A stretch of DNA of 64,000 nt, taken from the NCBI GenBank assembly GCA_024276425.1, contig JAJRXF010000102.1:20536-84535 (forward strand), in the 5' to 3' direction. The notes beneath the pieces are model-generated. The model was given only the letters and a program-made list of their open reading frames with translations, ran no database searches and was not told the origin of the DNA. Position 1 is the first letter of the stretch, and every line of letters begins with the position of its first letter. This document shows, piece by piece, positions 5,398 through 56,433 of the stretch. The translations under genes were made by a program, and so were the position numbers. This stretch comes from Actinomycetes bacterium (GTDB lineage Bacteria; Actinomycetota; Acidimicrobiia; Acidimicrobiales; SZUA-35).

Positions 5398-5817
<420 letters not shown>

Positions 5818-5859
5818 CTCGGGTGGCCCTTCATTCACCGGCGAGCCTTTCCTCGAAGC

Positions 5860-28275: not shown

Positions 28276-29538
28276 TTGGTTGTTGTAGGGTCCGAAAGTG
28301 TGACCATCAAAGAACCGCACCACCCTCTTCTCCACCCCTTCGCAATCCCGGCAAAGGCCGAGTCGGACTTCATCAATATCGTGTCCGGTGCAGGCACCAC
28401 CTTGCATGATGATCAGGGAAGGCGCTACCTCGATGGAATGGCTAGCCTTTGGTACTGCCAGGTGGGCCATGGTCGAACCGAGATTGTCGACGCCGTCGCC
28501 AATCAACTCAAGCAGACCGGCAGTTACAGCATCTTCGATCCGTTCACCTCCACCATTGCCCGCCGAGCGGCCGAGATGATTGCCGAGCGCTCACCTCATG
28601 CCGACGGTCGGGTGATGTTTGGCTGCTCCGGCTCCGAAGCAGTCGACACCGCCCTGAAGTTTTCTCGCCTGATTCAGCAACGGCGCGGGCTTCCAGATAA
28701 GCAGATCATCATCCGCCGCACCGACGCCTATCATGGCACGACCTTTGGCGGCACGGCATCCCAAGGACTTGCGCCCAACCGTGAGGGTTGGGGAGACCTC
28801 GACCCGAATTTCATCGAGATCCCACAAAGCGACATTGAGGCCATGGCCACCGTTTTTGGTGCCCATGGCGATCGAATAGCTGCGGTCATTAGCGAACCAG
28901 TCCAGGGAGCCGGAGGAGTGTGGCCCCCAGTCGAGGGATACCTCGAGAACATGCGCCGACTTTGCGACCAGCATGGGGCGCTCCTGATATTTGACGAAGT
29001 CATCTGCGGGTTTGGTCGAACCGGTTCATGGTTTGGTGCACAAACCTATGGTGTGACCCCCGACCTCATGACCTTCGCCAAGGGCGCAACGTCGGGGTAT
29101 CAACCCCTTTCAGGAGTCATCATTAGCCGCGCGGTGGCCGACGAACTGGAGGAAGATGACTCGTTCCTGCTCCGTCACGGTTACACCTACAGCGGCCATG
29201 CTGGGTCCTGTGCCGCGGCCGTCGCCAATATTGAGATTATCGAACGTGAGGGGCTGGTGGAACGAGCCAACCACATCGGCCGGGAAGTCACAAAAGGCTT
29301 CGAGGCGCTCAAAGGAGACGGACTCATCGAGGGCTACCGCGGGGTTGGGGCAGTATGGGCCGCCGACCTTGGCGAGCCAGCAGCCGAGTGGAGCCGAAAG
29401 ATGACGGCCAGAGGCCTAATCAGTCGAGGGTTCGACGACGCCCTAATCTTGTGCCCACCCTTGGTCATTAGCGACGACGAGATCGCCGAATTTGTCGAAG
29501 GGATCGCCGACCTTCGCCGCCAAATGGCACCAAGGTGA
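28276..29538 (+). CDS. Class III (omega) aminotransferase, PLP-dependent
   Basis: DEVICGFGRTGSWFGAQ and TFAKGATSGYQPLSG (PLP lysine). Start uncertain (TTG 28276 or GTG 28300). Confidence 0.88.
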   Translation: MVVVGSESVTIKEPHHPLLHPFAIPAKAESDFINIVSGAGTTLHDDQGRRYLDGMASLWYCQVGHGRTEIVDAVANQLKQTGSYSIFDPFTSTIARRAAEMIAERSPHADGRVMFGCSGSEAVDTALKFSRLIQQRRGLPDKQIIIRRTDAYHGTTFGGTASQGLAPNREGWGDLDPNFIEIPQSDIEAMATVFGAHGDRIAAVISEPVQGAGGVWPPVEGYLENMRRLCDQHGALLIFDEVICGFGRTGSWFGAQTYGVTPDLMTFAKGATSGYQPLSGVIISRAVADELEEDDSFLLRHGYTYSGHAGSCAAAVANIEIIEREGLVERANHIGREVTKGFEALKGDGLIEGYRGVGAVWAADLGEPAAEWSRKMTARGLISRGFDDALILCPPLVISDDEIAEFVEGIADLRRQMAPR

Positions 29539-29553: not shown

Positions 29554-30000
29554 CTACCGTGCCCTCAAAACCTCAAGTGCCTTATCAGCGTGAGCGTTCA
29601 TGCTGGTCTCGCTGTTGATCACGGCGAGAACCTCACGGTTGGTGTCAATCACGAACGTCGCCCGTTTTGTTGGCAGGAACCCCATCCGCTTCACCCCGAA
29701 TTGTTCCAGGATGCCTTTCTTCGGGTCCGAAAGCAGCGGGAACCCAAGGTCGTTGTCTTCGGCGAATTCTCGTTGCCGACCAACCTGGTCGGCACTCATT
29801 CCCACGATCGTGGCTCCCAACTGTTTGAACTCCGATTGCAGATCACGGAAATGTTTCGATTCAATCGTTCAACCAGGAGTTTTGGCCTTGATATAGAAGT
29901 ACAAAACGATTGGTCCGGTGTTCAACAGATCGCTCAGCTTGACCGATTCTCCGTTCTGGTCCAGTGCGGAAAAATCTTCGACGACAGCGCCGACTTTCAT
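29554..30000 (-). CDS. bcp: Bcp/PrxQ-type peroxiredoxin with an in-frame TGA (29869-29871) at the peroxidatic Cys position: candidate selenoprotein, alternatively a pseudogene
   Basis: Two same-frame track ORFs (29869..30066 and 29554..29820) join into MKVGAVVEDFSALDQNGESVKLSDLLNTGPIVLYFYIKAKTPG[TGA]TIESKHFRDLQSEFKQLGATIVGMSADQ... This is colinear with E. coli Bcp [23 protein letters not shown]. Confidence 0.7.
29833..29867 (-). promoter_or_regulatory. Candidate SECIS-like stem-loop starting 2 nt after the in-frame UGA
   Basis: CGAUUG (29867-29862) pairs with CAAUCG (29838-29833), enclosing AUCG/UGAU and an 11-nt apical region. Folded by eye only. Confidence 0.3.
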
Positions 30001-30070
30001 GGAAGTTCTCTCAGAGGCATTCCTGCACCCTAAAGTAATTCGACGCACTGGTTCCAATAGGTGCAAGATC

Positions 30071-30144
30071 GGGCCCGTAGCTCAGTTGGTTAGAGCACAG
30101 GACTCATAATCCTTTGGTCGTGGGTTCGAGCCCCACCGGGCCCA
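30071..30144 (+). tRNA. tRNA with CAT anticodon (elongator Met, or Ile2 if lysidine-modified)
   Basis: GGGCCCG-TA-GCTC..GAGC-A-CAGGA-CTCATAA-TCCTT-TGGTC-GTGGG-TTCGAGC-CCCAC-CGGGCCC-A. Lacks initiator features. Confidence 0.92.
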
Positions 30145-30327
30145 CGTTTTCGCCTCCGGCGAAACTGGAGTTTCGGCGCTAGGGCGCCAAAACATCCACA
30201 ACCCCAACACCCCACCCAACTCCACATCCAACAAAACTGGAGTTTCGCTCACTAACCGAGCTACTCGTTAAGGTCTGGTTTCCTCACGTGACTTAGTATC
30301 CCCTTACTCACACAGAGGTGAATTCTG

Positions 30328-32654: not shown

Positions 32655-32661
32655 AGTATGG

Positions 32662-32734
32662 CTCCGGGGGTGGGGCTCGAACCCACGACCTATTGATTAA
32701 CAGTCAACCGCTCTGCCAGCTGAGCTACCCCGGA
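32662..32734 (-). tRNA. tRNA-Asn (anticodon GTT)
   Basis: TCCGGGG-TA-GCTC..GAGC-G-GTTGA-CTGTTAA-TCAAT-AGGTC-GTGGG-TTCGAGC-CCCAC-CCCCGGA-G, 73 nt. Confidence 0.95.
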
Positions 32735-54630: not shown

Positions 54631-56433
54631 CTAATCATCCAACCGTAGGGCGCGGATGAACGTGTCCGGTGGAATATCGACACGACCGATGCTTTTCATC
54701 TTCTTCTTGCCTTCTTTTTGTTTCTTTAGCAACTTGTTCTTGCGCGTGACGTCTCCACCATAAAGCTTGGCGGTGACGTCCTTGCGATAGGCCCTGACCG
54801 TCTCTCTCGCGATGATCCGACCCCCGATGGCTGCCTGAATCGGAACCTCGAATTGCTGACGGGGGATGATCGACTTGAGTTTTTCGGCCATGCTCCGTCC
54901 GTAGTCATAGGAACGCTCGCGATGGACAATGGAGGAAAAGGCGTCAACCTGCTCACCGTTGAACAAGATGTCGACTCGGACAAGATCAGCGGCCTCATAG
55001 CCATCTGCTTCATAGTCCAGGCTGGCGTATCCTTGGGTCCGGCTCTTCATCTGATCAAAGAAGTCGATGACAACTTCAGCCAAGGGAAGCCGGTAAACAA
55101 TTTCGACCCGCTCCGGCGATAGGTACTCGATCTTGCCCATTACCCCGCGCCGCGTTTGGCATAGGTCCATGAGTGTGCCGGTGTAGTCGGTTGGTGTGAT
55201 GATCGAAGCCTTCAGCATCGGCTCTTCGATTCTTGACCAGTCGCCCGATACCGGCAGTGTCGAAGGATTGTCGATATCGACTACGTCGCCATTGTTCAGG
55301 GTGATCTTGTAGGCCACGGACGGCGAGGTGGCAATTAGATTTAGGCCAAACTCTCTCTGGAGTCGCTCTCGAACGATTTCCATGTGAAGCAGCCCAAGGA
55401 AACCGCAGCGAAACCCGAACCCCAACGCGGTTGATGTCTCCGGCTCGAAGGTGAAACTGCCGTCATCAAGTCGAAGTTTCTCCAGGGCCTCACGGAAGTC
55501 CTCATAGTCATCCCCATCCACGGGATACAGACCGCAAAACACCATTGGTTGGGGCTCACGGTACCCATCCAAGGTTTCGGTGGCGCGATTGTGCTCCGAC
55601 GTAATTGTCTCACCCGATCGTGCCTCACGCACATCTTTGATACCAGCTATCAGGTAGCCAACTTGGCCGGCCTTAAGCTCATCGACCGGGCTCGGTGCCG
55701 GGTTCCTGGTGCCGATCTCATCCGCCAGATGCGTGGCATCAGCCTGCATGAAATGCAGTTTCTCTCCCTTGGTCATGGTTCCGTTGACCACTCGGACGGA
55801 GGACACCACCCCACGATAGGTGTCGAAGTGGCTGTCGAAGATGAGTGTTTGAAGGGGGCCCTGTGGGTCACCAGTCGGTGAAGGGATCCGTTGAATGATG
55901 GCGTCGAGGAGTCCCTCGACGCCATCGCCAGTCTTGGCCGAGATCCGCAGAACATCTTCGGCCGGGATGCCGAGTACCTGCTCGATCTCGGCTGCGTACT
56001 TGTCTGGGTCGGCGGCCGGAAGATCCAGCTTGTTAAGAACCGCAACAACTTCAAGGTTCTTCTCCAAGGCCAAGTACATATTGGCCAGGGTCTGGGCCTC
56101 GATTCCTTGGGCCGCGTCAACAACCAGAACGACTCCCTCGCAAGCGGCCAAGGACCGACTGACCTCATAGCCGAAATCGACATGACCAGGAGTATCGATC
56201 AGGTTGATCGTGTGACCCTTCCAATCGAGCCTCACACTTTGGAGTTTGATGGTAATTCCGCGCTCCCGCTCCAGGTCCATGCTGTCCAAATATTGGGCCC
56301 GCATGTCACGAGCTTCAACCGCACCGCACAACTCAAGCATGCGATCAGCCAACGTCGACTTTCCATGGTCGATGTGGGCAATGATCGAAAGGTTGTGGAT
56401 CTTCGATAGGTAGCCGGAAGAAGACGAGTTCAT
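54631..56433 (-). CDS. lepA: Translation elongation factor 4
   Basis: [28 protein letters not shown] and NKLD motifs plus the LepA-specific C-terminal domain. 600 aa. Confidence 0.95.

Follow-up and report, generated by a model that had tools for sequence, protein, structure and literature searches.

A very probable Sec-containing Bcp/PrxQ peroxiredoxin of marine Acidimicrobiia and the RNA structure downstream of its in-frame UGA

PrxU of Eubacterium acidaminophilum is the experimentally studied selenocysteine (Sec)-containing peroxiredoxin named in reviews. Peroxiredoxins with Sec at the position of the peroxidatic cysteine (CP), referred to as Prx (TxxU), constitute an established selenoprotein family that is common in bacteria and in marine samples, as known from the surveys of Zhang & Gladyshev and from current tables (PMC2398784, PMC5029168, PMC13188914). 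Sec forms of this family were reported in 78 organisms (Peng et al., PMC5029168), and 253 Sec sequences were found in 34 GOS samples. According to the bacterial SECIS (bSECIS) model, as quoted in PMC13188914, the recoding hairpin carries an apical loop of 3-5 nt with the consensus N-G-[G/U]-N-N', and this loop is located 16-37 nt from the UGA.

The window, i.e., the whole 64,000-nt stretch of DNA analysed here, carries on its minus strand a gene (29554..30000) with an in-frame UGA (29869..29871). Judging from sequence comparisons, this gene very probably encodes an unannotated Bcp/PrxQ selenoprotein of marine Acidimicrobiia, in which the catalytic Cys is replaced by UGA-encoded Sec (Sec-Bcp). 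It is an unannotated member of the known Prx (TxxU) family, with which it shares the AhpC-TSA fold and a T-x-x-U motif, in this case T-P-G-U, whose Sec takes the place of the peroxidatic Cys. As in the rest of the family, Cys homologues far outnumber the Sec forms, and the Sec forms are common in marine samples. The gene differs from PrxU in belonging to the Bcp/PrxQ subfamily, its product scoring only 23.7 bits against the NCBIfam model NF040737 (peroxi_PrxU), below the cut-off of 270. It also departs from the other Prx (TxxU) proteins in three respects: the Pro of the PxxxTxxU motif is replaced by Ile or Val in the subclade of the window gene, most members have lost the resolving Cys, and 83 nt separate the UGA from the sole hairpin with the SECIS loop consensus.

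Reading frame and relatives of the Sec-Bcp gene

The frame comprised 148 codons and extended from an ATG (30000..29998) to a TAG (29556..29554), both on the minus strand. Its translation (MKVG...KAKTPG*TIESKHFRD...LRAR*) contained a single internal TGA at 29871..29869, surrounded by the sequence MKVGAVVEDFSALDQNGESVKLSDLLNTGPIVLYFYIKAKTPG*TIESKHFRDLQSEF...ALEVLRAR. A mechanical list of open reading frames cut the gene into two parts (29869..30066 and 29554..29820). The initial annotation had read these as two minus-strand ORFs in the same frame, split by the TGA at 29869-29871 and encoding together a 148-aa read-through product, and the translation confirmed this frame.

When Cys was placed at the TGA, the product matched the Pfam family AhpC-TSA (PF00578, E 9.4e-32) over residues 3-124 of 148, and the Redoxin profile was matched as well. 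The score against the NCBIfam equivalog PRK09437 (thioredoxin-dependent thiol peroxidase) was 96.4 bits, below the cut-off of 140. The closest solved structure was the actinobacterial 2-Cys Bcp 5epf_A ('Peroxiredoxin' in the PDB; E 2.4e-42, residues 1-147), with its TPGC opposite TPG[TGA]. The two proteins are of equal length, collinear over their full extent, and share TPG-C/U-T, HFRD, PLLSD and KR-TFVID. This alignment, together with the Cys codon present in distant homologues (see below), substantiated the earlier assignment of the TGA to the catalytic Cys of the TPGCT motif. In the active site, T41 and the Arg of KR-TFVID were present and position 44, encoded by the UGA, was aligned with CP.

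The two proteins differ in their redox residues. The 2-Cys enzyme possesses a Cys at CP and a resolving Cys at +5, whereas the window protein has the predicted Sec and a Lys (K49), respectively, at these sites, so that the resolving Cys of the atypical 2-Cys Bcp is missing, and Cys is absent from the rest of the protein. The Sec-Bcp of the window is therefore, by its sequence, of the 1-Cys(Sec) type, as had been stated in the initial annotation. In the proposed catalytic cycle, Sec44 would reduce peroxide and become a selenenic acid. Because of K49 and the lack of any other Cys, an external reductant would be needed for its regeneration, presumably a thiol reductant such as a putative thioredoxin- or glutaredoxin-like partner, as in 1-Cys Bcp.

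A search of species-representative genomes with the part of the gene 3' of the TGA as query revealed five metagenome-assembled genomes (MAGs) of Acidimicrobiia (L001-L005). Their proteins were 75-87% identical to the window protein, all carried TGA and in all both flanks of the codon were conserved. One of them (L002, chromosome OZ245048.1) is a closed sequence of 4.37 Mb. It aligns collinearly with about 19 kb of the window (about 73% nucleotide identity), which assigns the window to uncultured Acidimicrobiales. A scan of metagenomes yielded 31 further loci (56-85% identity), all with TGA and many from marine samples, and two more TGA contigs were reached via JGI gene calls that render the codon as Trp. 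In total, TGA occupied the same codon in 38 of 38 relatives, five MAGs and 33 metagenome contigs, with 56-87% aa identity and about 32 distinct sequences among them. All 75 more distant homologues, which came from Actinomadura, Glycomyces, Mycobacterium and other Acidimicrobiales, had TGC at this position, followed by the resolving Cys (TPGCTxExCHFRD).

No second stop codon or frameshift was found in any of the 38 TGA relatives, a disruption of close relatives having been named beforehand as an observation that would speak against a selenoprotein. The dN/dS ratio in the Sec-Bcp clade was 0.28 for codons 2-43, 5' of the UGA, and 0.21 for codons 45-148, 3' of it. The latter value indicates that the downstream part is translated and under selection, in agreement with the initial annotation, which had described the sequence 3' of the TGA as conserved and stop-free. 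The orthologue alignment that it had proposed as a check revealed conservation 3' of the TGA and the alternation of Sec (TGA, 38 sequences) and Cys (TGC, 75 distant homologues). The arrangement used to recognise selenoproteins, an in-frame UGA opposite a catalytic Cys with both sides conserved, was thus found at this locus.

In the neighbor-joining (NJ) tree, the Sec forms made up essentially a single clade within the actinobacterial Cys Bcp proteins. The forms with U-x4-C were basal (the basal members have U-TKES-C) and the 1-Sec forms with K49 were derived. The basal members could form an internal selenenylsulfide.

The Pro of the peroxiredoxin PxxxTxxC motif, at position CP-7, is universally conserved. 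In the window protein, it was replaced by Ile37 (29890-29892). Within the Sec subclade, which shows YFY-I-KAxTPG-U, Ile occupied this position in 28 of 31 sequences and Val in the others, while the sister Sec forms kept Pro. The loss of this Pro predates that of the resolving Cys.

As regards the surroundings of the gene, a divergently oriented tRNA-Met (30071-30145, plus strand) is found 70 nt upstream of the start of the Sec-Bcp gene, and a tRNA-Asn (32659-32734, minus strand) at a distance of 2.6 kb. L001, L002, L081 and L082 show this arrangement as well, and the divergent tRNA-Met with the nearby tRNA-Asn belongs to the part that the window and L002 have in common. A scan for promoters and terminators returned no signal stronger than expected by chance.

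RNA structure downstream of the UGA codon

The initial annotation had proposed a SECIS stem beginning 2 nt 3' of the UGA. Its two arms, the hexamers CGAUUG (29867..29862) and CAAUCG (29838..29833), are indeed present on the minus strand, as are the inner AUCG/UGAU pairs, but the 66 nt 3' of the UGA folded no better than shuffled sequences (z = 0.06). The stem was specific to the window: across 31 Sec-clade sequences, 48.7% of its cells were paired, and shuffled and slid controls were as good. This hairpin was accordingly discarded as the SECIS. RNAalifold applied to nt +1..+63 alone returned just a 5 bp UGAAC/GUUCR pairing in columns fixed by coding. This alignment was too short, and its extension (from -30 to +140) exposed three helices, designated A, B and C.

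Helix A consisted of a 5' arm at 29841..29853 (CAUUUCCGUGAUC, nt 19-31 from the U of the UGA) and a 3' arm at 29797..29809 (GAUCGUGGGAAUG, nt 63-75), both on the minus strand and both identified in the MFE fold of the window, by RNAalifold and by pair counts. It began 15-16 nt past the UGA and had a consensus core of 10 bp, extended to 13 bp in the window. In 30 sequences, 93.7% of its cells were paired, in comparison with 60% in the Cys homologues, and the pair 51/103 showed compensatory changes, with CG in 13 and UA in 12 sequences. Hairpin B (29816..29834, minus strand; consensus CCGAGUUC-GCC-GAACUCGG) was located inside helix A, with 87.9% of cells paired in the Sec clade and 65% in the Cys homologues. 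In the window it was weak, with 5 of its 8 pairs formed and CAAAC as the loop. The loop varied between sequences (GCC, AAU, AAA, ACC, UCC and others), with a G in the first two loop positions in 19 of 30 sequences.

Hairpin C (29774..29794, minus strand; U-GCCGACCA-GGU-UGGUCGGC-A), the candidate SelB-binding SECIS, started 2-4 nt after helix A. It had 8-9 bp (range 7-9; 9 bp in the window) and a GGU or GUC triloop, with the GGU of the window at 29785..29783. In the Sec clade 95.8% of its cells were paired, compared with 32% in the 75 Cys homologues, and all 30 sequences had a G in the first two loop positions. Two of its pairs changed in a compensatory manner: 114/122 was UA in 25 and CG in five sequences, and 116/120 was AU in 13, CG in six, GC in six and GU in three.

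The MFE structure of the whole region in the window was composed of A and C (-33.6 kcal/mol, z = -1.96), and hairpin C alone reached -15.6 kcal/mol with z = -4.68. For helices A, B and C together, 92.6% of cells were paired, against 31-50% when the 3' partners were slid by 1-3 columns, and none of 500 shuffles was as high. Some of the compensatory changes altered the protein (Q-V, R-S or P-V; D or G) and yet preserved the pair. Over hairpin C, Cys relatives with the residues SADPVDRQ (L119) or SADPVERQ (L118) formed 4-5 of 8 pairs, whereas the Sec forms with SADPVDRQ formed all 8. In the comparison of sequences, the three-helix RNA downstream of the UGA was thus shown to be conserved with compensatory changes and confined to the UGA forms. 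A search of Rfam at a permissive E-value over 29650..29950 returned no SECIS and no other credible family. Elsewhere in the window (5401-5818, plus strand), Rfam recognised the bacterial RNase P RNA class A (RF00010, 247 bits).

The codon usage in the region was also inspected. A codon-by-codon count showed that synonymous sites were near saturation over most of the gene and nearly fixed at Gly43, Glu57 and codons 66-75, and dS was 0.99 for codons 45-76 versus 1.61 further 3'. Among the codons of the 3' arm of helix A, Val66 was GUG in 27 of 29 and Gly67 was GGA or GGG in 27 of 31 sequences. When each sequence was recoded with synonymous codons, C attained its observed pairing in 4% and A in 19% of the trials, which means that part of the pairing capacity is inherent in the amino-acid sequence.

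Further fixed codons were noticed in the 31 clade members. The Gly43 codon directly before the UGA (29872-29874, minus strand) was GGU in 30 of them and GGC once, other Gly codons varying freely; Lys38 was AAG and Glu57 was GAG in 30 of 31 each. The GAG of Glu57 is compatible with helix B or with the UGAAC/GUUC pairing. The GGU of Gly43 is not accounted for by helices A-C and may reflect a codon-context effect on UGA decoding. An out-of-frame TGA (29796-29798, minus strand; in GGA-AUG-AGU) is situated 10 nt 5' of hairpin C, and also occurs in L002, L003, L082 and L098. It lies outside the Bcp frame, the alternative frame is short, and its presence is probably coincidental.

With regard to the bSECIS model (the bSECISearch consensus), hairpin C agreed with the rules on loop, stem and energy in 30 of 30 sequences (the -15.6 kcal/mol given above is the value of the window). 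It shares with the canonical elements of E. coli fdhF and fdnG the loop form N-G-[G/U]-N-N' and an upper stem of 8-9 bp, and its loop resembles the A-GGUC-U of fdhF, as read from the E. coli genome. The spacing is different: in each of the 30 aligned sequences, which show no indels here, 83 nt separate the UGA from the start of the C loop, in contrast to 18-19 nt in fdhF and fdnG and outside the 16-37 nt of the model, and the conserved A/B domain of 55-57 nt sits between the UGA and hairpin C.

A strict scan for contiguous stems in the 30 clade sequences detected a hairpin at 82-83 nt in 27, hairpin B, with a loop G, at 41-42 nt in eight, and none with its loop at 16-37 nt. The last result holds for contiguous stems only, as such a scan would overlook the bulged stem of E. 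coli fdhF. A lenient scan allowing bulges recovered the positive controls E. coli fdhF and fdnG with spacings of 18 and 19 nt, and in the clade its only hits, in 26 of 30 sequences, were the A/B domain in distorted form at the 36-37 nt edge.

The preferred model is that hairpin C acts as the SelB-binding SECIS. Helix A would begin just beyond the mRNA channel of a ribosome with the UGA in its A site, and the A/B stem-loop would serve as a compact spacer, so that the effective distance from the UGA to the loop of C would be about 26-28 nt if the 55-57 nt of A/B are left out of the count. The chances are about even for such a split bSECIS, in which the SelB hairpin, 83 nt away, would be brought near by the covarying A/B stem-loop.

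The main alternative accepts the selenoprotein and assigns the SECIS to A/B, with SelB bound to the apical hairpin B and with C as an accessory element involved in stability, pausing or regulation. A long bulged stem-loop starting 15-16 nt past the UGA is indeed what classical bSECIS elements look like. The loop of B starts at 41-42 nt, just past the canonical range, and a strict hairpin with a loop G was present in 8 of 30 sequences; the distorted A/B at the 36-37 nt edge appeared in 26 of 30 with the lenient scan. This assignment seems unlikely in view of the varying loop of hairpin B, which has a G in its first two positions in only 19 of 30 sequences and in the window is reduced to CAAAC with 5 of 8 pairs. 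Hairpin C, by contrast, has the consensus loop in 30 of 30, the strongest covariation and the sharpest difference between Sec and Cys forms (96% vs 32%). The recoding signal deviates from the consensus model whether the SECIS is C or A/B.

Sec machinery and decoding of the UGA

Sec would be inserted at the UGA (29871..29869) by the bacterial Sec system, i.e., tRNA-Sec and SelB, and on comparative grounds this decoding is highly likely. No tRNA-Sec was detected by ARAGORN and Rfam in the 64-kb window and 36 related loci. Likewise, tblastn of E. coli SelA, SelB and SelD against the window and all loci gave no credible match in the window or in the Sec-clade flanks. A SelB-like match at 54631..56433 was rejected, being LepA with a generic GTPase similarity. 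At L112:357-1289, the minus strand encoded a homologue of SelD (36% identity to the E. coli protein, E 3e-57), adjoining a Cys-type Bcp; L112 is a soil metagenome contig belonging to the Cys outgroup and carries a distant relative of the window gene.

The evidence for Sec machinery comes from the literature on other Acidimicrobiia, the searches described above having covered the window and the flanks of the related loci. Ilumatobacter coccineus, I. nonamiensis and Ca. Microthrix parvicella were listed as positive for SelD, SelA and SelB, with 15, 10 and 7 selenoproteins, respectively (Peng et al. 2016, PMC5029168 supplement). According to a 2026 preprint, each of 84 complete Actinomarina genomes carries selA, selC and selD, their selB being divergent. 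The novelty implied for the gene was overstated, as Prx (TxxU) proteins are common and cultured Acidimicrobiia (Ilumatobacter) had already been listed as rich in selenoproteins; that the gene itself was unannotated proved correct.

A search of the window and flanks for other selenoprotein genes, defined by an in-frame TGA with a C-type hairpin at 16-37 or 10-100 nt, returned only off-frame or antisense artefacts. In one clade member (L094:1168 and L096:642) the gene's own stop codon is TGA, with a 10 bp hairpin (CGUAUUUGAC-GGA-GUCGAAUACG) 21 nt downstream and 130 codons open in frame beyond it. The translation past this stop is not protein-like, so the hairpin is probably terminator-like and marks no second Sec site.

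Another possibility is that the UGA is read without Sec, either by read-through with a near-cognate tRNA (Trp, Cys, Arg) or as a sense codon throughout the lineage. Read-through might in principle be promoted by the stable helix that begins 15-16 nt past the UGA, and the JGI pipelines gave W at this codon. Reassignment is contradicted by the use of TGA as a terminator in 10 of the 33 long ORFs of the window (stop-to-stop, at least 300 codons), including that of the convergent aminotransferase ending at 29538. The initial annotation had likewise taken TGA for an ordinary stop in this neighbourhood. An enzyme with Trp or Arg as its peroxidatic residue would be inactive, whereas the surroundings of the active site are strongly conserved. 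The fit of the hairpin C loop to the SelB-type consensus and the Sec machinery reported in related Acidimicrobiia also argue against this possibility, which is regarded as very improbable.

Even less credible, and rejected here, is the decaying pseudogene (Cys to stop) that the initial annotation had left as its alternative, or else an error of sequencing or assembly. In favour of this reading, the ORF is split by gene callers and the 64-kb window has no Sec machinery, but the same TGA stands in 38 assemblies or contigs, independent of each other, only 56-87% identical in protein and free of a second disruption, with a dN/dS of 0.21 downstream and a conserved UGA-specific RNA structure. Taken as a whole, the explanation favoured here, a Sec-Bcp with hairpin C as the candidate SECIS, is considered quite likely.

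Database annotation and significance of the Sec-Bcp clade

The initial annotation had expected a Sec-Bcp to be missing from public annotation, and the protein collection agreed with this expectation. The entries belonging to the clade were either C-terminal fragments of 83-105 aa or proteins with W at the active site, and U was present in none. The 'TPGWT' peroxiredoxins among these entries are very probably TPG-U-T proteins. Among the JGI calls, the Sec TGA was given as Trp in L116:486-932 (P0012), in L117:196-885 (P0009) and also in P0001. The L117 call runs through two further TGAs, which results in a 229 aa product.

If the split SECIS is true, it would define a type of bSECIS that the 16-37 nt model used by selenoprotein predictors does not cover, bacterial SelB would act across a structured spacer, and similar genes would be missed or mis-modelled. 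A functional hairpin C would widen the geometry accepted for Sec decoding in bacteria and provide a concrete cause for the failure of model-based predictors to find such genes.

For the family, the clade suggests a stepwise path from a 2-Cys Bcp through the U-x4-C forms to a 1-Sec enzyme in which the resolving Cys and the motif Pro are both gone. For the organisms, it means that a putative antioxidant enzyme of abundant marine Acidimicrobiia is invisible or misdescribed in the public collections searched.
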